This document shows, in pieces, positions 1-25,005 of a DNA stretch of 25,044 nucleotides. The first letter of the stretch is position 1, and the number at the start of each line of letters is the position of its first letter. The notes beneath the pieces are model-generated. The model was given only the letters and a program-made list of their open reading frames with translations. It had not been told where the DNA came from and did not search any database. The position numbers and the translations under genes were made by a program. Origin of the DNA: a virus (taxonomy: Duplodnaviria > Heunggongvirae > Uroviricota > Caudoviricetes); the IMG/VR virus record IMGVR_UViG_2529293240_000020, positions 1 through 25,044 of that record. The stretch is one strand, 5' to 3'.

Positions 1-399
1 AAAGAACGGCGAACCAGCTATAGCCGTGAATTTAAGGTCCGTCTGGCTAAGCAGGCGTTACAGCCTGGGGCTGTTGTTGCCCGGATCGCCAGAGAACACG
101 ATATCAATAATAACCTGCTGTTTAAATGGAAAAGCCAGTACGAGGACGGCTTACTGAGCGATGATGACATACAGGAATGCATGCCTGTCCCGGTGGCTCT
201 GACTGATACGCCGGAGCCGACCAGACCAGTTACAAATCCCTTCTGGCGTAACAAGCATGATGAGCGCCCTGAGGGGGCTCCCGGAAACGTCCCACGGTGC
301 GAGCTGCATCTTAAATCAGGTGTGGTAAAACTGTTTGACCCTCTCACTCCGGAACTGTTACGGGCGCTAATCCGCGAAATGAAAGGGGGTATCCGATGA
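1..399 (+). CDS. IS66-family TnpA (orf1), 5-prime partial at window edge
   Basis: Frame 1 is open from position 1 (KERRTSYSREFKVRLAKQAL...), stop at 397..399 overlapping the tnpB start; helix-turn-helix-like N-terminal region. Confidence 0.7.
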   Translation, partial: KERRTSYSREFKVRLAKQALQPGAVVARIAREHDINNNLLFKWKSQYEDGLLSDDDIQECMPVPVALTDTPEPTRPVTNPFWRNKHDERPEGAPGNVPRCELHLKSGVVKLFDPLTPELLRALIREMKGGIR

Positions 400-635
400 T
401 AACGCTGCCGACCGGTACCAAAATCTGGATCATCGCTGGCATCACAGATATGCGTTGTGGCTTCAATGGCCTGGCTTCGAAGGTGCAGAACACGCTGAAA
501 GATGACCCGTTCTCCGGGCATATCTTCGTCTTCCGGGGCCGCAGTGGCAAAATGGTGAAAATACTGTGGGCCGATCGTGACGGGTTATGCCTGTTCGCCA
601 AACGCCTGGAACGGGGCCGCTTCTCTGGCCGGTGA
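396..635 (+). pseudogene. IS66-family TnpB (orf2), apparently frameshifted
   Basis: ORF ends ...KRLERGRFSGR* at 635, but the expected TnpB continuation (LLWPVTREEVHLTPAQLSMLLEGI) is readable in another frame from ~620, consistent with a 1-nt deletion near 624..626; a second shift may precede the C-terminal WQHPKRTERPGIRI segment. Confidence 0.55.
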
Positions 636-757
636 CCCGGGAGGAAGTGCACCTGACGCCAGCTCAGTTATCCATGCTACTGGAGGGGATCCGTGGCAAC
701 ATCCCAAACGGACAGAACGGCCTGGCATCCGGATATAACCCGTGATAAAACAAGGGA

Positions 758-2359
758 ATGAACAATGAACTCCCCGATGATATTGAGCTGCTTAAAGCCA
801 TGTTGCGTAAGCAACAGAGTCGGCTTCGACAGTATGCCTGTCAGATCGCGGGCTATGAGCAGGAAATTGAACGGCTGAAAGCGCAACTCGACAGGTTGCG
901 TCGTATGTTGTTCGGCCAGAGTTCAGAGAAAAAGCGTCATAAGCTTGAAAATCAGATCCGACAGGCAGAAAAACGACTGTCGGAACTGGAAAACCGGCTG
1001 AACACAGCCAGAAATCTTCTGGAAGATGCATCGACAGTCACAGATTCACCTGACACCAGTCCCCCGTCAGAAAACCCGATCGCCAGTAAGCCTGAATCCC
1101 CAGGACGAAAATCTTCACGAAAACCGCTGCCGGCAGAACTTCCCCGGGAGACACATCGCCTTCTGCCTGCTGAAACCAGTTGCCCGGCCTGTGGAGGTGT
1201 TCTGAAAGAAATGGGGGAAACAATCTCAGAGCAACTGGATATCATTAATACCGCCTTTAAAGTTATCGAAACCATACGTCCCAAACTGGCCTGTAGCCGG
1301 TGTGATGTCATCGTTCAGGCACCACTTCCCCCTAAACCGATCGAACACGGTTATGCCAGTGCAGGGTTACTTGCACGGATCCTGGTCAGCAAATATATGG
1401 AACATATCCCTTTATATCGCCAGTCAGAAATATACGCGCGACAGGGCGTGGAGCTGAGCCGTAATACCATGGTGCGCTGGGTATCAGAAATGGCAGACAA
1501 ACTCCGTCCTCTGTATATAGCGCTGAATGACTATGTTCTGGAGGCAGGAAAGGTGCACGCAGATGACACTCCGGTGAAACGTACTGGCCCCGGGGAACGG
1601 AAGACGAAAACGGGTCGTCTGTGGGTATACGTCAGGGATGATCGTAATGCGGGTTCATCCCTGCCGGCAGCCGTCTGGTTCGCGTATTCGGCAGATCGCA
1701 AAGGAGAACATCCGCAGCTCCACCTGGCAAAGTATCAGGGCGTACTGCAGGCTGATGCCTATGCAGGTTATAACGTACTGTACGAAACGGGCCGGGTGAA
1801 GGAAGCCGGGTGCCTGGCCCACGCCCGCCGAAAAATCCATGACGAGGATGTGCGCCGTCCGACAGAAATGACTCAGGAAGCGCTCAGACGGATAGCAGAG
1901 TTATACGACATAGAAGCGGAGATACGTGGCAGTCCGGCAGAGGAACGGCTTGCAGTCAGAAAAGCCAGAAGCGTCCAGTTGATGCAGTCGTTGTACGACT
2001 GGATACAGTTGCAGAGGAAAACGCTGTCGAAACATGCGGAGATGGCGAAGGCGTTCGACTATATCCTGAATCACTGGAATGCGCTGAACGAGTTCTGTCG
2101 TGACGGCTGGGTGGAAATAGACAACAACATCGGTGAAAACGCGTTACGATCGGTGGCGGTTGGAAGAAAAAATTATCTCTTTTTCGGCTCAGACAAGGGA
2201 GGAGAAAGTGCGGCGATCATCTACAGTCTGCTGGTCACCTGCAAACAGAACGAAGTGGAGCCGGAGGACTGGTTGCGCGAAGTGATCGAGAAGCTCAATG
2301 ACTGGCCGTCGAACCAAGTGCATGAACTGCTGCCCTGGAACTTCTCGTCTGTAAAATAA
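758..2359 (+). CDS. IS66-family transposase TnpC (orf3), 533 aa
   Basis: Long ORF with N-terminal coiled-coil/leucine-zipper region, zinc-finger-like CPACGG...CSRC motif and the large catalytic region characteristic of IS66 TnpC. Confidence 0.8.
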
Positions 2360-2391
2360 TCCTTACGCTACGTACTTCTCGGGGCGCTTAC

Positions 2392-2683
2392 TGTTGACCT
2401 GCTCTGCGTTTAATTTGGCATTGGTTCCCATACGCCGCATCTGAGCATCAAAATCAGCCACGCCTTTTACCGTCATGCTGCCACCAAGCTCGGCAATCAT
2501 CGCCGTGTAGCGGTTGCCAAGCGCATCCAGACTGCGCCCAGCGGCGTCGGTTGTGGCTTTGACCAGGCGCATGGCTTTCTGGTTATTCCGGGCGAACTGC
2601 GACATATTCGCGCCATACTGCCGGGCTTTGGCGGTCAGGTTCCCGGCAAGGTTGATCATGATTTCCGTGCTGAGACGGCTACC
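2392..2683 (-). pseudogene. Tail tape-measure gene fragment (N-terminal ~90 codons); codons 1-3 lie at 3950..3958 across the IS600 insertion; 3-prime end truncated by IS66
   Basis: Removing IS600 and one TSD copy restores GGAG-N7-ATG GCA ACA GGT AGC CGT CTC AGC ACG GAA ATC ATG ATC AAC... in frame with ORF 2363..2659; the last ~10 codons of that ORF (SKRPEKYVA*) are read from the IS66 terminus. Position directly after the tail-chaperone gene and the alanine-rich sequence fit a tape-measure N-terminus. Confidence 0.5.
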
Positions 2684-2725
2684 TGAGGTGTACTGGCAAT
2701 AGCGGACACTACCATTTGTTCTTTT

Positions 2726-3544
2726 TTAAGCAGCCATCTGATGATATTTTTCCCTGAAGGCTGCCGGGGAGATATTCCCCAGACGAGAGTGACGACGCTG
2801 ACGATTGTAGAAAATCTCAATGTATTCCCGTATTACTGAGATGGCTTCATCCCGGTTATTAAAACGATAGTGGCTCAGGCTCTCATTTTTCAGCGTTCCC
2901 CAGAAGCTTTCCATCGGAGCGTTGTCGTAACAGTTACCTTTACGCGACATTGATGTTTTCAGACCAGACTGCTCCTGTATGACCCGGTAATCGTATGCGC
3001 AGTACTGTGAACCTCGATCAGAGTGGTGGATTAGCCCGGCAGGTGGGCGCTGGCTCCTGAGCGCCATAAACAGGGCTTTACCTGTCAGCTCTTTTGTCAT
3101 GCGCTCTCCCATGGCGTAGCCGACAATTTCGCACGTATAAACATCTTTGATGCCAGCGAGGTACAACCATCCCTCCTGTGTGGCAACATACGTCAGGTCC
3201 GCCACCCAGACCTGATTTGGTGCTGTAGGAGCGAACGTCTGGTTCAGCAGATTTGGCGCAACTGGCAGATTGTGGTTCGGGTTCGTAGTCGCTCTGAACT
3301 TGCGTTTCTGCTTACAGCGTAGCCTTAGCTCCTTACGAAGACGTGCCAGTCGGTCACGACCAACGATGATGCCATTCTCTGCCAGCTCCGTCTGGAACCG
3401 CCGGGTTCCATATGTTTCGCGAGTGCGGATATGTGCCACCTTAATCTCCAGTTTTAGCCGCTCATCACTTTGTTTTCTGTCTGAGGGTTCATGCTGTACC
3501 CAGTTGTAATAACCGCTCCTGGATACACCAAATACCTGACACAT
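2726..3544 (-). CDS. IS600-like transposase OrfB (DDE integrase domain), expressed as an OrfAB fusion by -1 frameshift
   Basis: IS3-family OrfB with DDE catalytic region (HSDRGSQY... and downstream E); the frame overlaps the orfA 3-prime end. Confidence 0.8.
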   Translation of the reverse strand: MCQVFGVSRSGYYNWVQHEPSDRKQSDERLKLEIKVAHIRTRETYGTRRFQTELAENGIIVGRDRLARLRKELRLRCKQKRKFRATTNPNHNLPVAPNLLNQTFAPTAPNQVWVADLTYVATQEGWLYLAGIKDVYTCEIVGYAMGERMTKELTGKALFMALRSQRPPAGLIHHSDRGSQYCAYDYRVIQEQSGLKTSMSRKGNCYDNAPMESFWGTLKNESLSHYRFNNRDEAISVIREYIEIFYNRQRRHSRLGNISPAAFREKYHQMAA

Positions 3545-3579
3545 CGCTTCAATGGGAAATTGTTGTCGCCATTGTTCGA

Positions 3580-3882
3580 TTAACGCGTATTTTTCAGCGA
3601 CTCCTGTGCAAAATACGCTGTTGCTTTTTTTAATATATCTCGCTCAAGGCGAGCTTCATTTAACGCCTTACGCAGTTGCAGAATTTCAGATTCCAGTTCA
3701 GCCACCGTGCGGGAACCAGGAGTACCGAGCCCTTTTCTGGCGGCGGTAACCCATTGTCCTAAAGTGCCTTCAGGAAGGGATAATCGGGAAGCGCCTTCAC
3801 TGATCGAAAGTTGATTTTCAAGAACCGTTCTGACAGCTTCGGCTTTGAACTCTTTAGAGTAACGTTGGGTTTTTCTGCTCAT
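3580..3882 (-). CDS. IS600-like OrfA (HTH plus leucine zipper), 100 aa
   Basis: ATG at 3882..3880, typical IS3-family OrfA length and sequence. Confidence 0.8.
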   Translation of the reverse strand: MSRKTQRYSKEFKAEAVRTVLENQLSISEGASRLSLPEGTLGQWVTAARKGLGTPGSRTVAELESEILQLRKALNEARLERDILKKATAYFAQESLKNTR

Positions 3883-3946
3883 TATTAGCTCCTTCTGATG
3901 CCATTCTATTTCAGGAAGGAGTGTCCGTTAAACTCAGGCTACCTCA

Positions 3947-4154
3947 ACCTGTTGCCATACTGTTTCTCCAGTTGCTTTATCAGGCGGAACAACTGCCGCA
4001 GGGGCAGTTGTTCCAGGTACTGAATGCTGAATCGCGAAGACAGGTTAACCAGCAGGTTCATCAGTGCCGCCGCCAGCGGCATCAGTTCGCCCCCGCGTTG
4101 CCACCTCCTCAAGCATGTCATCCAGCACAGCCGCTTTCGTGCTGATAAGCTCAA
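3947..4154 (-). CDS. Overlapping +1-frame ORF at the 3-prime end of the tail-chaperone gene; possible frameshift extension. Its current stop is IS-derived; natively it ends at a TAG overlapping the tape-measure start
   Basis: Frame open from a TGA near 4178 through the chaperone stop (4045) to the IS600 junction; no ATG start (the ORF track begins it at TTG); translation is protein-like and amphipathic. Confidence 0.3.
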
Positions 4155-4440
4155 GGTCTGCCGGGTGGAGCATTCGCAGCTGTTTCATGTCCAGCGGGCC
4201 GGGGATATTACCGATTGACGCAACCTGACGGCGCATCATCTCCAGTCCCATCAGCACCTCAGAACAGTAGGCCACCGCCTTTCCGTTCCCGCCCATGACG
4301 ACGCGTTCTGCGGCCAGTTGCGCATCAATCACATCACTGGCGGTCAGTTCGCGCAGTTTCACGGTTTTATGCAGGGTTTCATCTGCCGTGCCTTTGCCGG
4401 TCAGAAGCCCGTGTTTCAGTTCAAATTCCATTGCGGCCAT
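4045..4440 (-). CDS. Phage tail assembly chaperone (Mu-type), 131 aa
   Basis: Small acidic protein immediately after the tail tube gene and before the tape-measure start, the conserved myovirus order. Confidence 0.5.
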   Translation of the reverse strand: MAAMEFELKHGLLTGKGTADETLHKTVKLRELTASDVIDAQLAAERVVMGGNGKAVAYCSEVLMGLEMMRRQVASIGNIPGPLDMKQLRMLHPADLELISTKAAVLDDMLEEVATRGRTDAAGGGTDEPAG

Positions 4441-11255: not shown

Positions 11256-12819
11256 GAGCAGTGTCTCCCAGCGCACGCGCCTTAAAGCACACCTCCGCCA
11301 GTTGCAGGGCAAAGTCGTCCGCGTTCAGCGTTTCCTGAAGCTCAGGCAGGCGTTTCAGAAAGTCATCAAAACTGTCGCACTCCTGCGCCAGTGTCAGCAC
11401 CGGGTTCGTGAACGCCTCGCCGGTTTTCTGCCAGTCACGCAGGGCATCATCCACCATCTGTGCCAGTTCGTCGGGGTGTTCCCTGTTCAGGGCGACGCGC
11501 TCGCGGTTCATCGCCATATCACCCGGCATCCCGGCAGACACCGGATGCAGAACATCAGCCCCTTCGTCTGGCTCAGCCAGGCCGAACCGGTCCCGCAGCG
11601 CCGACTCCTGAACCCGCATCCCCCGGTCAATCAGCGCCACCAGAGCATCTGTCAGCGCCTTCAGATCTTCGGCTTCACTGATACGCAGAACAACACGGGG
11701 GTAGTGCGCCTGTGGCCCGTAGTTGGCCTCGATGTAGGGCCGCACCAGATATTCATTCAGCGTGTTAGCCAGCTGCCGCGCGTCCCAGCGCACAATGTCC
11801 ATGCGCACCTGATTGTGCACGTCCGCCTGTGAACGCGAACTGCCGTTATCCGTGGTCATGGTCTGCCCCAGCACAGCCTTACTGATTTGCGCATCACACC
11901 ATTCCGCCATTTCACGGAACAGTGCGCCGCCGTTATTCCGGCTGGCGGTTTCCTGCATCTCCAGTTGCATGGACTGCGGAATGGCACACCCGGCATCCGA
12001 GGCAATGGAGGCAATCGCATCAATCAGTACGCGGATTTGCTCCTCCGTGGCGTTGGGACCGTATTTCCCCACCGTGACCGGAATGCCGAATTTTTCCGCG
12101 AATGCCCACCAGTCACGCACGGTAAAGGATTTCAGCATGTACATTACCGCCACCAGACGGGCCAGACCGTTACGCAGCGGCAGACCGGATTTCAGGCGCG
12201 GCTGGTGAACAATGAATTTTCCCGGTGTCAGTGGTACACCATCCACCGGTTCATCATCCGTCAGCAGGCGGAACTGGCGCAGTGTGGGCTTTTCGGCTTT
12301 CAGAAAACGGGGATCAACCCACTCATAATCACGGGGCACCCAGTGATTGTTACGGGTGTTCCACAGAATTTCACAGACCGCCACGCCTTTTCCCAGCCCG
12401 TCGAGCAGATCAAACATCAGCTCGGGGATTTGCGGGGCTTCCATCAGCGCACGGATGGCGTCCGCCAGCTGCACGTCAGCATCGTCATCACTGGCCGCCA
12501 CCACCACCGGTTCGATACCCGCCACCGTCAGCTTGCGGGTGCGCAGTACCGAGGCGTAATGCAAATCGCGTTCTTCCATCTCTTCAGCAAGGATAAAAAA
12601 ATCACGCGTGATACCGTCGGCGGCATTGCGCAGAATACCGGCCAGTCTGCCGGGATTCAGCCCGGAGGCGATGCTGATGCCCGGAGAGGCCGGACGCACA
12701 CCCGCCTGACGCGGACGGGCCTGTACTTCATCGAGCCTCTCTTTTTTCAGCGTGTCTTCCTCACCGGTTGCCGGGTTCAGCAGACGGCGAACGGCCCCGG
12801 CCAGTTGTTTCAGGTTCAC
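11248..12819 (-). CDS. Portal protein, Mu gp29-like, 523 aa
   Basis: Size and position immediately after the large terminase gene with ATGA-type overlap. Confidence 0.8.
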   Translation of the reverse strand: MNLKQLAGAVRRLLNPATGEEDTLKKERLDEVQARPRQAGVRPASPGISIASGLNPGRLAGILRNAADGITRDFFILAEEMEERDLHYASVLRTRKLTVAGIEPVVVAASDDDADVQLADAIRALMEAPQIPELMFDLLDGLGKGVAVCEILWNTRNNHWVPRDYEWVDPRFLKAEKPTLRQFRLLTDDEPVDGVPLTPGKFIVHQPRLKSGLPLRNGLARLVAVMYMLKSFTVRDWWAFAEKFGIPVTVGKYGPNATEEQIRVLIDAIASIASDAGCAIPQSMQLEMQETASRNNGGALFREMAEWCDAQISKAVLGQTMTTDNGSSRSQADVHNQVRMDIVRWDARQLANTLNEYLVRPYIEANYGPQAHYPRVVLRISEAEDLKALTDALVALIDRGMRVQESALRDRFGLAEPDEGADVLHPVSAGMPGDMAMNRERVALNREHPDELAQMVDDALRDWQKTGEAFTNPVLTLAQECDSFDDFLKRLPELQETLNADDFALQLAEVCFKARALGDTAHA

Positions 12820-19217: not shown

Positions 19218-19301
19218 CTCTTAATACCTTTTCTGGATTCAGGAAAACTGCGCCGGTAACCTCCAGCAGATTCACCAGAGCATGGGTCGCAATTGCTGCA
19301 G
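19195..19301 (-). pseudogene. 3-prime fragment of an early gene disrupted by IS911 (reconstructed ~118-aa ORF)
   Basis: Removing IS911 and one CAG copy joins 20554..20809 to ..19301 in frame: ...NGDCLA/AAIATHALVNLLEVTGAVFLNPEKVLRDENTDDY*. Confidence 0.5.
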
Positions 19302-19373
19302 TGAAGTGGCACACTGAATTTGGCCACCTGAACAGAGGTGATATGCTCACCTCAGAACAACACAGGTGCTCCA

Positions 19374-20542
<1,169 letters not shown>

Positions 20543-20550
20543 CCACTTCA

Positions 20551-20809
20551 CAGCCAGGCAATCACCGTTGTAGCAGGCATTGTCGATAACGCTTTTTATT
20601 ATTCTTATCAGCGATGGCAGTGTGGTGTTTTCCAGAATTTCCAGCCTGAACTGCTTCAGCCAGTATTCATATTCAGCTTCATCAAATGGACGCTCACCCA
20701 TCAGTTCCGTCAGTGTTGCATCGGCCTGCTCTGGCGTATATCCACTGACAACCAGTTGCGCCCGCATTTCAGCCCGATATTTCGGGTCGTCATAAATACG
20801 TTTACTCAT
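20551..20809 (-). pseudogene. 5-prime fragment (86 codons) of the early gene disrupted by IS911; the remaining 24 codons of track ORF 20477..20809 are read from the IS911 end
   Basis: ATG at 20809 overlaps the upstream stop (ATGAGTAA); the frame runs into the IS terminal repeat at 20550. Confidence 0.5.
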
Positions 20810-22068: not shown

Positions 22069-22299
22069 ATTCATTTCCTCTGGTCCTGATTCAGGCGCGA
22101 GCAATCCCCTGACGCATCGCGCCATAATTAAAAGAAAGTGAATTAATTAAATATTCGTCGTGGTATTAAATACCGGCTTCCTGTTCAAACGGAATAATAG
22201 AAAAATCTTCAATGCCTGATTTAACTGTAATTCCGGCGACACCTGCGACTGCTTTCGGCTCCAGTAAAATCGCTTCCTTGTTGAGGTAATGACTCCAAC

Positions 22300-22803
22300 T
22301 TACTGATAGTGTTTTATGTTCAGATAATGCCCGATGACCTTGTCATGCAGCTCCACCGATTTTGAGAACGACAGTGACTTCCGTCCCAGCCTTGCCAGAT
22401 GTTGCCTCAGATTCAGATTATGTCGCTCAATGCGCTGAGTGTAACGCTTGCTGATAACGTGCAGCTTTCCCTTCAGGCGTGATTCATACAGCGGCCAGCC
22501 ATCCGTCATCCATACCACGACCTCAAAGGCCGACAGCAGGCTCAGAAGACGCTCCAGTGTGGCCAGAGTGCGTTCACCGAAGACGTGCGCCACAACCGTC
22601 CTCCGTATCCTGTCATACGCGTAAAACAGCCAGCGCTGACGTGATTTAGCACCGACGTAGCCCCAATGTTCGTCCATTTCAGCGCAGACAATCACATCAC
22701 TGCCCGGTTGTATGCGCGAGGTTACCGACTGCGGCCTGAGTTTTTTAAGTGACGTAAAACCGTGTTGAGGCCAACGCCCATAATGCGTGCACTGGCGCGA
22801 CAT
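22300..22803 (-). CDS. insB: IS1 InsB (transposase catalytic part, made as an InsAB-prime fusion by frameshift)
   Basis: Sequence characteristic of IS1 InsB (...[28 protein letters not shown]...). Confidence 0.8.
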
Positions 22804-22997
22804 CCGACGCCATTCATGGCCATATCAATGATTTTCTGGTGCGTACCGGGCTGAGAGGCGGTGTAAGTGAACTGTAGTTGCCATGTTTTACGGCAATGAG
22901 AGCAGAGATAGCGCTGATGTCCGGCAGTGCTTTTGCCGTTACGCACCACGCCTTCAGTAGCGGAGCAGGAAGGACATCTGATGGAAATGGAAGCCAC
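22722..22997 (-). CDS. insA: IS1 InsA (zinc-finger DNA-binding regulator), 91 aa
   Basis: [40 protein letters not shown]... characteristic of IS1 InsA. Confidence 0.85.
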
Positions 22998-23196
22998 GCA
23001 AGCACCTTAAAATCACCATCATACACTAAATCAGTAAGTTGGCAGCATTACCGAACTTCTGGAGTGCAGAATCACCAATCCTAATATTACTACTAAATAG
23101 CTGCGCCTAATAACGCGACACCCGCCGTTTACTGTCTGGTGGCTTAACCTGCAAGGGCTGGCTGAAAGTGGGACACTATGCCGCGCAGCTATTTAG

Positions 23197-24438
23197 TCAC
23201 CCAACTAGCTTCATTCCTTTTATCCCACCTTCAATCATGCTTCCACGATCCGCTGCCATCACAAAATTTGCCCACCATTGCATCATCGGGCGACGCTGTT
23301 CCAGGTAATCGCTGCGGTTATAAGCACGACGAACCTCATTCTTATCCACATGGGCCAATGCTGCCTCAATGGCATCAGGCGGAAAGCCTTGTTCATTAAG
23401 AGCCGTACTGGCAATTGATCTCAGACCATGCGAAACAAGCACACCACCAAAACCTGCGCGTTTTAGTGAGGCGTTAACAGTCTGACTGTTCATAGGCTGG
23501 TTGGGCTTGATACGGCTAGGAAAGATAAATTCTCGGTTGCCGCTTAGCGGTTTCATCATCTCCAGCACAGCTATTGCTTCATCTGACAATGGAACAGTAT
23601 GGTCGCGGTTCATTTTCATGCGTGCTGCGGGAATCTTCCACTCTTGCGCTTCTATGTCTACTTCTTCCCAGCGAGCTTCAGCCGCTTCGGCAGGGCGGGT
23701 AATAGTAAGAAGTTGCCACATGAACAGGCAGCGTGTGGAAAGGCTAATGCTGGCTGTTCGCATTGTCTGCATCAGTTGAGATAGCTGATCCGGTCGAATG
23801 CTGGGCATGTTCTTTTTCTGAGGCTTTTCGAAGGCTTTACCGATATTAACGCTGGGAACAGCATCAATCAGCCCTGTGTTCTGGGCATAGATCATGACCT
23901 CATTAATACGTTGACACAGGCGACGAACCGTTTCCAGTGCTCCTCTGGCCTGAACCGGTTGTACGGCCTGAACCAGTGTATGAGCTTTAATATCTGTAAC
24001 GCTAACGTCGCCAATCGCAGGAAAGACATCTCTTTCAAGAGAGCGCCAGATATCTTCCGCATAGTCCTCTGTCACACTGGCTTTCTTCACATTCCACCAA
24101 CGTTCAGCTACGAGCTGGAAAGTATTGGTTTTGGCTTCCAGCGAACTACGCAATTGTTCTTGCTGATGTTCCTGCGGATCAATCTGTTTAGCTAGGAGTG
24201 AGCGGGACTCTGCACGGTAGTTTCTGGCATCGGCAAGGGTAACTGACGGGTAAGGGCCTATGCTTTTCTTTGCTCGTTTCTTGGTGACAGGGCGAATGTA
24301 GCGAAACTGCCAGATTTTACTCCCGCTGGATTTAATGAGTAGCTCAAGGCCATCGCCATCATAGAGAACGTAGTCCGCTTCCTTGGGTTTAGCAGATTCG
24401 ATTTCCTTAACGGATAGAGGTTTGGTTTGTCTTGCCAT
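23197..24438 (-). CDS. int: Tyrosine recombinase / integrase, P4-type (CP4-57 IntA-like), 413 aa, apparently intact
   Basis: Downstream of ssrA in the same orientation with a 204-bp gap; catalytic H-x-x-R (HGLRS) and Tyr (AYNRSDY) motifs; N-terminus MARQTKPLSVKEIESAKPKEADYVLYDGDGLELLIKSSGSK typical of P4-family integrases. Confidence 0.85.
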   Translation of the reverse strand: MARQTKPLSVKEIESAKPKEADYVLYDGDGLELLIKSSGSKIWQFRYIRPVTKKRAKKSIGPYPSVTLADARNYRAESRSLLAKQIDPQEHQQEQLRSSLEAKTNTFQLVAERWWNVKKASVTEDYAEDIWRSLERDVFPAIGDVSVTDIKAHTLVQAVQPVQARGALETVRRLCQRINEVMIYAQNTGLIDAVPSVNIGKAFEKPQKKNMPSIRPDQLSQLMQTMRTASISLSTRCLFMWQLLTITRPAEAAEARWEEVDIEAQEWKIPAARMKMNRDHTVPLSDEAIAVLEMMKPLSGNREFIFPSRIKPNQPMNSQTVNASLKRAGFGGVLVSHGLRSIASTALNEQGFPPDAIEAALAHVDKNEVRRAYNRSDYLEQRRPMMQWWANFVMAADRGSMIEGGIKGMKLVG

Positions 24439-24458
24439 TGCCGGGTTTCCATAGTTTT

Positions 24459-24509
24459 AGGCACCTCAAAGACAATATAGCTTTATGAAGTGCCTAACAA
24501 GGTGCCTAA
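24459..24509 (-). promoter_or_regulatory. Three copies of an 8-mer (AGGTGCCT / GTGCCTAA) in the ssrA-int intergenic region; candidate arm-type or operator sites and promoter region of int
   Basis: AGGCACCT at 24459..24466 (inverted), GTGCCTAA at 24490..24497 and 24502..24509, within 70 bp upstream of the int start. Confidence 0.3.
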
Positions 24510-24563
24510 AAGGATCGGATTTAATTAGTTGGCATCAGACTTCGCGGGACAAATTCGGGGCAC

Positions 24564-24596
24564 AAAAAAGCCCGCAGGGCTTGCGCCGTGCGGGCT
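24564..24596 (-). terminator. Rho-independent terminator downstream of ssrA (GC-rich 11-bp stem with one mismatch, then UUUUUU on the minus strand)
   Basis: GCCCGCAGGGC-TTGC-GCCGTGCGGGC followed by the complement of the A-run at 24564..24569; lies ~45 nt past the tmRNA 3-prime end. Confidence 0.5.
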
Positions 24597-24642
24597 CTTA
24601 GGACTTCATCGGATGACTCTGGTAATCACCGATGGAGAATTT

Positions 24643-25005
24643 TGGTGGAGCTGGCGGGAGTTGAACCCGCGTCCGAAATTCCTACATCCTCGGTACTACA
24701 TGCTTAGTCAGTCTTTACATTCGCTTGCCAGCTGCGGACGGACACGCCACTAACAAACTAGCCTGATTAAGTTTTAACGCTTCAACCCCAGGCAGGGCTT
24801 CCACGCGATCTCTTTTGGGTTTGACCTCTCTTGATCCCCGTCCTAAGAGCGGAGGCTAGGGAGAGAGGGCTCTAAGCAGGTTATTAAGCTGCTAAAGCGT
24901 AGTTTTCGTCGTTTGCGACTATTTTTTGCGGCTTTTTACGAGGCCAACCGCCCCTCGGCATGCACCTTGGGTTTCGCAAATCCCGTCGAATCCAGAATCA
25001 GCCCC
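24643..25005 (-). ncRNA. ssrA: tmRNA (SsrA, 10Sa RNA), 363 nt
   Basis: Reverse complement reads GGGGCTGATTCTGGATTCGACGGG ... GCAAACGACGAAAACTACGCTTTAGCAGCTTAATAA (tag-peptide ORF) ... GGACGCGGGTTCAACTCCCGCCAGCTCCACCA, matching enterobacterial ssrA as recalled. Confidence 0.9.

Follow-up and report, generated by a model that had tools for sequence, protein, structure and literature searches.

It is almost certain that, in an ancestor of the Shigella flexneri lineage that includes strains J1713, J17B, and 2850-71, a copy of IS600 split the tape-measure gene of a Mu-like prophage, and that ISSfl3 was inserted later, in the branch comprising J1713 and J17B. No contradiction between this explanation and the sequence was found. 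The window analysed here (25,044 nucleotides) is the end of contig AFOW01000037.1 of assembly GCA_000217895.2, window position 1 being contig position 1, and this assembly is given as S. flexneri J1713 in a published strain table (PMC6397287). Sequence comparison established the identity of the element, its two junctions, the target duplication and the empty site, as well as which strains share the insertion and which of the two insertions came first.

Identity and structure of the IS600 copy

The element is encoded on the minus strand and has the following components:

2684..3946, minus strand, full-length IS600 (IS3 family), 1263 bp against 1264 bp in the reference
3920..3946, minus strand, left inverted repeat of IS600, TGAGGTAGCCTGAGTTTAACGGACACT
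2684..2710, minus strand, right inverted repeat of IS600, ...AGTGTCCGCTATTGCCAGTACACCTCA, placed by alignment to reference copies
3580..3882, minus strand, IS600 orfA, 100 aa, intact, with a transpos_IS3 match
2726..3544, minus strand, IS600 orfB, 272 aa from its own ATG, intact, with a transpos_IS3 match (E = 4.7e-99)

By the ISfinder convention, members of a named IS share >95% nucleotide identity over the full length. IS600 copies annotated on Shigella and EIEC plasmids are 99.7–99.8% identical to the window element over 100% of its length (1263/1264 bp), and this identity, together with the intact anatomy, allows the 'IS600-like element' of an earlier reading made from the sequence alone (hereafter, the sequence-only reading) to be sharpened to IS600 itself. 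Copies on pINV plasmids, e.g. pWR501 (NC_002698.1) and the S. dysenteriae pINV (NZ_CP119451.1), which fall in the same 99.7–99.8% range, have in common with the window copy the terminal repeats, the orfA/orfB layout, the A7 slippery site, and the 3-bp target duplication. The window copy differs from them by one base fewer in an A-run, one Leu>Phe substitution in OrfB (common to J17B), and its lineage-specific insertion site.

Read on the minus strand, the element starts with TGAGGTAGCC and ends with ACACCTCA. Its terminal inverted repeats are 27 nt long and imperfect (70% complementary), and the ends, TGAGG...CCTCA, fit the TG...CA ends of the IS3 family. The orfB gene lies in the -1 frame relative to orfA (338-nt offset), with an A7 slippery run at 3625..3631 in the overlap region (TTA AAA AAA G in the orfA frame), and its product contains an rve (DDE integrase) domain detected by Pfam. 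RefSeq labels the 385-aa OrfAB of IS600 copies 'programmed frameshift', and the same frameshift is predicted for the window copy. The only promoter-like site in the region (3931..3903) lies within the left repeat and is directed into the IS. Two changes distinguish the window copy: a C>T substitution at 3397, corresponding to Leu50Phe in OrfB, and the loss of one A in a non-coding A-run just past the orfB stop. The missing A is probably a homopolymer error in the draft, because it is present in every other copy compared, including the J17B copy at the same site.

Insertion site and reconstruction of the gene start

The element is bordered by the following features:

3947..3949, minus strand, upstream copy (GGT) of the target-site duplication, tape-measure codon 4
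2681..2683, minus strand, downstream copy (GGT) of the target-site duplication
3950..3969, minus strand, orphaned tape-measure start: GGAG at 3969..3966, a 7-nt spacer, and ATG GCA ACA at 3958..3950
2392..2680, minus strand, tape-measure codons 5–100 plus 1 nt, cut off from the start by IS600 and ending at the ISSfl3 junction

The duplicated triplet is ACC on the plus strand and GGT on the minus strand. Duplications of 3 bp, which are typical of IS600 copies, were present at 7 of the 9 distinct IS600 sites examined. Downstream of IS600 and the second GGT, the gene continues as AGC CGT CTC AGC ACG GAA ATC ATG... and remains open to 2392; this segment (2392..2680) is 99.3% identical to positions 12176..12469 of the corresponding locus (L001) of Escherichia coli VL40. 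The two IS600 junctions are ATGGCAACAGGT joined to TGAGGTAGCC and ACACCTCA joined to GGTAGCCGTC, and the empty site is ATGGCAACAGGTAGCCGTC. In silico removal of IS600 and one GGT yields this empty-site sequence, ATGGCAACAGGTAGCCGTC..., reading MATGSRLSTEIMINLAGN... and translated as MATGSRLSTEIMINLAGNLTAKARQ....

These data uphold most of what the sequence-only reading had proposed for the site. The insertion is indeed at codon 4 of the tape-measure gene, since the duplicated GGT (Gly) is that codon; the ACC duplication is intact at 2681–2683 and 3947–3949, with a single GGT at empty sites; and removal of the IS and one ACC restores GGAG-N7-ATG GCA ACA GGT AGC, continuous with the downstream ORF and identical base for base to intact prophages. 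The first three codons do lie at 3950..3958, and the distance separating them from the rest of the gene, put at about 1.3 kb, is 1.27 kb. The interval assigned to the element (2684–3958) needs trimming: it contains IS600, one copy of the duplication, and codons 1–3, and the IS proper stops at 3946.

In the explanation that we favour, a full-length IS600 would have transposed into the late (tail) operon of the Mu-like prophage in the lineage ancestor, and a staggered cut around codon 4 (GGT) would have generated the 3-bp duplication. By analogy with the IS3 family in general, the chemistry would have been of the copy-out/paste-in type via a circular intermediate.

Uninterrupted relatives and the true start of the tape-measure gene

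When the reconstructed junction was searched for with a 470-nt query, E. coli VL40 gave a single ungapped match of 99.4% identity, and the VL40 gene, a PGAP CDS for a 618-aa 'phage tail protein', begins at the reconstructed ATG and has one GGT. The VL40 Mu-like prophage (NZ_CM177011.1, 3.66–3.70 Mb) shares 98% nucleotide identity and gene order with the window over 12 kb of head and tail genes and retains a full early region (repressor, transposase, and ATPase), an intact 618-aa tape-measure gene, and a module free of IS elements. Three further loci (L007, L011, and L012) encode an identical upstream chaperone and have the same empty site with a single GGT, and their gene calls of 597–618 aa share the same start; in four more distant E. 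coli prophages (86–93% identity), the annotated CDSs also start at this ATG. The comparison with uninterrupted homologous prophages, which the sequence-only reading had suggested as a check, thus recovered the exact reconstructed start with a single GGT in VL40 and others.

A related prophage at locus L010 (CP026875.1) carries an independent IS600 insertion at 2796..4059 with a CTC duplication; this IS600 copy separates the virion morphogenesis genes from the sheath gene and lies near an IS66-family element. The tape-measure gene of the L010 prophage is intact (614 aa). In the phage collection, megablast with the reconstructed junction gave no match, and megablast with 12 kb of the prophage gave no close cultured relative, one Klebsiella phage being 73% identical; the prophage is therefore not a Shigella Mu-like phage described in that collection.

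The genes are ordered as in a Mu-type contractile-tail module: Mu-type portal, protease, major head protein, sheath, tube, Gp41_Mu chaperone, small ORF, and tape-measure gene, followed by the DNA circularization protein, baseplate, and finally Com/Mom genes. The gene directly upstream of the small ORF and the interrupted gene is as follows:

4045..4440, minus strand, tail assembly chaperone gene (Gp41_Mu family; PF23746, E = 4e-37; phrog_508)

Because the Gp41_Mu chaperone gene sits immediately upstream, the interrupted gene occupies the position of Mu gp42, i.e. that of the tape-measure gene. Among PHROGs, both phrog_973 'tail length tape measure protein' (E = 4e-141) and phrog_23801 align with the 618-aa protein from residue 1, and tblastn over residues 6–443 gives 50–52% amino acid identity to the annotated tape-measure proteins of two phages, Vibrio phage martha 12B12 and Shewanella phage vB_SspM_MuM16-2. 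In these cultured Mu-like myoviruses, which are only distant relatives of the window prophage, the tape-measure gene likewise follows the tail assembly chaperone gene. Pfam gave no match (E ≤ 0.01) to the 618-aa protein, the 98-aa fragment called in the window, or the small ORF, which leaves PHROGs, tblastn, and gene order as the basis of the family assignment; a precomputed PF10145 match is listed for the J17B tape-measure fragment. The profile match to phrog_973, the identity to tape-measure proteins of Mu-like phages, and the Mu gene order bear out the earlier identification of the interrupted gene.

The start of this gene is the point on which the reconstruction turns. If the reconstructed ATG were fortuitous, the real start would lie elsewhere and the IS would be intergenic or in another region; apart from the silence of Pfam on the 618-aa protein, nothing was found in support of this, and we give it next to no chance. 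All intact homologues are annotated or called from the same ATG, and none with another tape-measure start, the finding that the sequence-only reading had named as fatal to its reconstruction, was encountered. In intact relatives, in-frame TGA TAA stops lie 7–8 codons upstream of the ATG with no ATG, GTG, or TTG in between, which makes the reconstructed ATG the first possible start. The PHROG profile aligns from residue 1, and phage tape-measure proteins align from residues 5–6 of the 618-aa protein. Homologue starts, upstream stops, and profile alignment together effectively refute a fortuitous ATG.

Consequences for the tape-measure gene and the small ORF

The first three bases of IS600 form an in-frame TGA directly after codon 4 (ATG GCA ACA GGT TGA), and the remaining ~613 tape-measure codons, now displaced downstream by 1.27 kb, lack a start. 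Because of this stop and the lack of a start for the rest, the tape-measure protein would not be made and tails would not be built: after the ribosome-binding site and codons 1–4, translation would meet the IS-supplied TGA, leaving the prophage tailless. On the strength of this gene structure, we strongly infer a loss of tape-measure function. The next in-frame ATG is codon 12 (2659..2657), from which gene finders call a 98-aa product in the window and a 606-aa product in strains without ISSfl3. In the latter strains, a tape-measure protein minus its first 11 residues might in principle still be produced; a search for an outward promoter-like site at the IS600 end that could drive the downstream fragment found none.

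The insertion also touches a small ORF:

3939..4061, minus strand, small ORF, 40 aa (phrog_38797), between the chaperone and tape-measure genes

In intact relatives, the stop of this ORF (TAG or TAA) overlaps tape-measure codons 4–5. IS600 extends the ORF by Leu-Arg, and its stop is now a TAG inside the IS left repeat. The insertion thus spares the overlapping small ORF, with two residues added, yet silences the tape-measure gene via the IS-supplied stop. Relative to the Gp41_Mu chaperone gene, whose 3' end it overlaps, the open frame containing the small ORF (window 3939..4154, minus strand) is shifted to +1. By analogy with lambda G/GT or P2 E/E+E', the small ORF may be a frameshift extension of the chaperone, for which a +1 frame would be unusual. 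The 'hypothetical proteins' of 98 and 606 aa and the ORF of 40 aa should accordingly be re-annotated as fragments or by-products of the insertion.

The second insertion, ISSfl3

The displaced part of the gene is interrupted once more:

1..2391, plus strand, partial ISSfl3 (IS66 family), comprising the end of tnpA, tnpB, and tnpC (758..2359), cut by the end of the contig and window

This segment is 99.4% identical to ISSfl3 copies and has NCBIfam matches to transpos_IS66 and IS66_TnpB. Similarity to the intact tape-measure gene ends at 2392, and the junction, between 2391 and 2392, falls after tape-measure nt 301 (codon 101), where the terminal GTAAGCGCCCC of ISSfl3 adjoins the gene (GGTCAACA joined to GTAAGCGCCCC). 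In J17B, ISSfl3 is complete (2,754 bp), with the 8-bp duplication GGTCAACA on both sides and the remaining tape-measure gene beyond. Its assignment to ISSfl3 is based on high identity, the tnpA-tnpB-tnpC organization, GTAAGCG termini, and the 8-bp duplication, the last two being taken from J17B since the window holds one end of the element.

The statement that the tape measure 'has been hit twice', with a truncation by IS66, therefore stands in its first part, the second hit being a real ISSfl3 insertion after nt 301; the truncation is unsupported because the window begins at a contig end inside ISSfl3. A true truncation in J1713, in which the remaining tape-measure sequence and the tail genes downstream of it were deleted, is in our view unlikely. 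It would agree with the lack of tape-measure sequence beyond nt 301 in the window and with the 3 substitutions and 6 small indels that separate the J1713 ISSfl3 from the J17B copy; against this, window position 1 is the contig end inside ISSfl3, which makes the missing downstream sequence uninformative, and J17B, 100% identical in unique prophage DNA, has a complete ISSfl3 with the 8-bp duplication and the remainder of the gene after it. Since the near-identical J17B shows both the duplication and the gene continuing past the IS, we regard the event as a simple insertion, which in J1713 predicts a far-side junction of ...GGGGCGCTTAC joined to GGTCAACACGCTGAAGAAC.... On this account, ISSfl3 would have been inserted after nt 301 with an 8-bp duplication, later than IS600, in the J1713/J17B branch.

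The differences in the window copy of ISSfl3, one result of which is that tnpB is called at 79 aa versus 115 aa, may be draft-assembly or repeat-collapse errors rather than real decay. Where a draft contig ends inside an IS element, an apparent 'truncation' should not be taken for a deletion.

Distribution among strains and order of insertions

Both IS600 junctions are present in four assemblies, with identical orientation and duplication in all (strain names from PMC6397287 and PMC10732043):

GCA_000217895.2, S. flexneri J1713 (window): IS600 present; ISSfl3 present, the contig stopping inside it
CP100042, S. flexneri J17B, serotype 3a, complete chromosome: IS600 present; ISSfl3 present and complete
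GCA_000268085.1, S. flexneri 2850-71: IS600 present; ISSfl3 absent
GCA_900457175.1: IS600 present, with a private 1-bp deletion in orfB; ISSfl3 absent

The prophage flanks are 99.9–100% identical among the four carriers, and the C>T substitution inside IS600 (3397) is shared, among carriers, only by J1713 and J17B. We conclude that a single ancestral IS600 insertion was inherited, because the four carriers have near-identical flanks and identical junctions and because J1713 and J17B have the IS SNP in common. The search of other isolates for the junction, also suggested by the sequence-only reading, thus found one inherited event in 2850-71, J17B, and GCA_900457175.1. The junction was recovered from just four assemblies, so that only a relative age can be given for the insertion: IS600 preceded ISSfl3, because 2850-71 and GCA_900457175.1 have IS600 alone and no assembly with ISSfl3 but without IS600 at this locus was seen among those recovered.

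A draft mis-assembly joining a repeated IS would be another source of such junctions. The J1713 assembly is a 2011-era draft, its contig ends inside ISSfl3, and the 1-bp homopolymer deficit of its IS600 is unique among the copies; however, the same two junctions occur in the independent complete chromosome of J17B (CP100042) and in two other assemblies, and a clean 3-bp duplication with exact restoration of the gene is not expected from a mis-join, so that an artefact of this kind is extremely improbable.

A second alternative to common descent starts from the target itself. The empty target ACAGGTAGCCGTC (window 3947..3962 with 2670..2683) includes AGGTAGCC, which equals nt 3–10 of the IS600 left repeat, and 1.4% of random 27-nt prophage windows match an IS600 end equally well. 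For elements of the IS3 family, IS911 among them, insertion targeted to sequences similar to the element's own ends has been described. If IS600 had inserted repeatedly and independently at a hot spot, the same junction could appear in several strains, but this is very unlikely: the four carriers agree in flanks (99.9–100%), orientation, and duplication; a private IS SNP is common to J1713 and J17B; and an IS is found at this position in none of the 46 E. coli complete genomes that bear relatives of the VL40 prophage, although 3,502 of the 5,426 complete E. coli genomes hold IS600-like sequence. At eight other distinct IS600 sites, the target does not resemble the IS end, and the 8-nt match is probably coincidental. 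That the site is non-random, chosen by IS600 through end-directed targeting, and that the junction is accordingly a recurrent hot spot instead of a clean lineage marker, seems to us only slightly less unlikely.

Megablast of the interrupted region against the 5,426 complete E. coli genomes found the junction in none, the matches being to IS600 alone. The left junction had no exact match in the GTDB species-representative genomes; Shigella of this lineage are thus evidently not among the GTDB representatives. The mSphere paper on J17B mentions neither this prophage nor IS600 or ISSfl3. Over 6.5 kb of unique prophage DNA, J1713 and J17B are 100% identical, and they share the private IS600 SNP; the two names look like typographic variants of one strain name.

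Decay of the prophage

The locus holds IS600, ISSfl3, IS911, and IS1 within about 23 kb. IS911 (IS3 family; ~19292..20558, plus strand) lies in the middle region of the prophage and is 99.2–99.8% identical to annotated copies; around it, ~580 bp of VL40 sequence are missing or replaced in the window. IS1 (~22285..23100) marks the end of the Mu-like prophage, within the gam region. The window lacks four genes found in VL40, those for the repressor, ner, transposase A, and ATPase B, and the prophage is therefore a remnant that could not replicate. Beyond IS1, the region 23197..25005 (minus strand) contains a P4-type integrase gene (PRK09692, 413 aa) and the ssrA tmRNA gene (24643..25005, tag ANDENYALAA), which we take to be the classic ssrA island attachment region, adjoining IS1 and the prophage remnant.

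According to Hawkey et al. 2020 (PMC7373316), five IS, one of them IS600, have expanded across all species of Shigella and reach hundreds of insertions per chromosome. In contrast to the IS-driven pseudogenization described there, the target in the present case is a prophage structural gene and not a host metabolic gene, and no convergent or adaptive signal is apparent. With a known element, a known mechanism, and an already crippled prophage, this is ordinary prophage decay in S. flexneri, and its significance beyond bookkeeping is little. The J17B (serotype 3a) branch could be recognized by the two exact junction sequences, used as lineage markers. What the locus records is how, in one S. 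flexneri lineage, a Mu-like prophage was disabled in steps, by IS600 and then ISSfl3 in the tape-measure gene, with IS911 and IS1 elsewhere.
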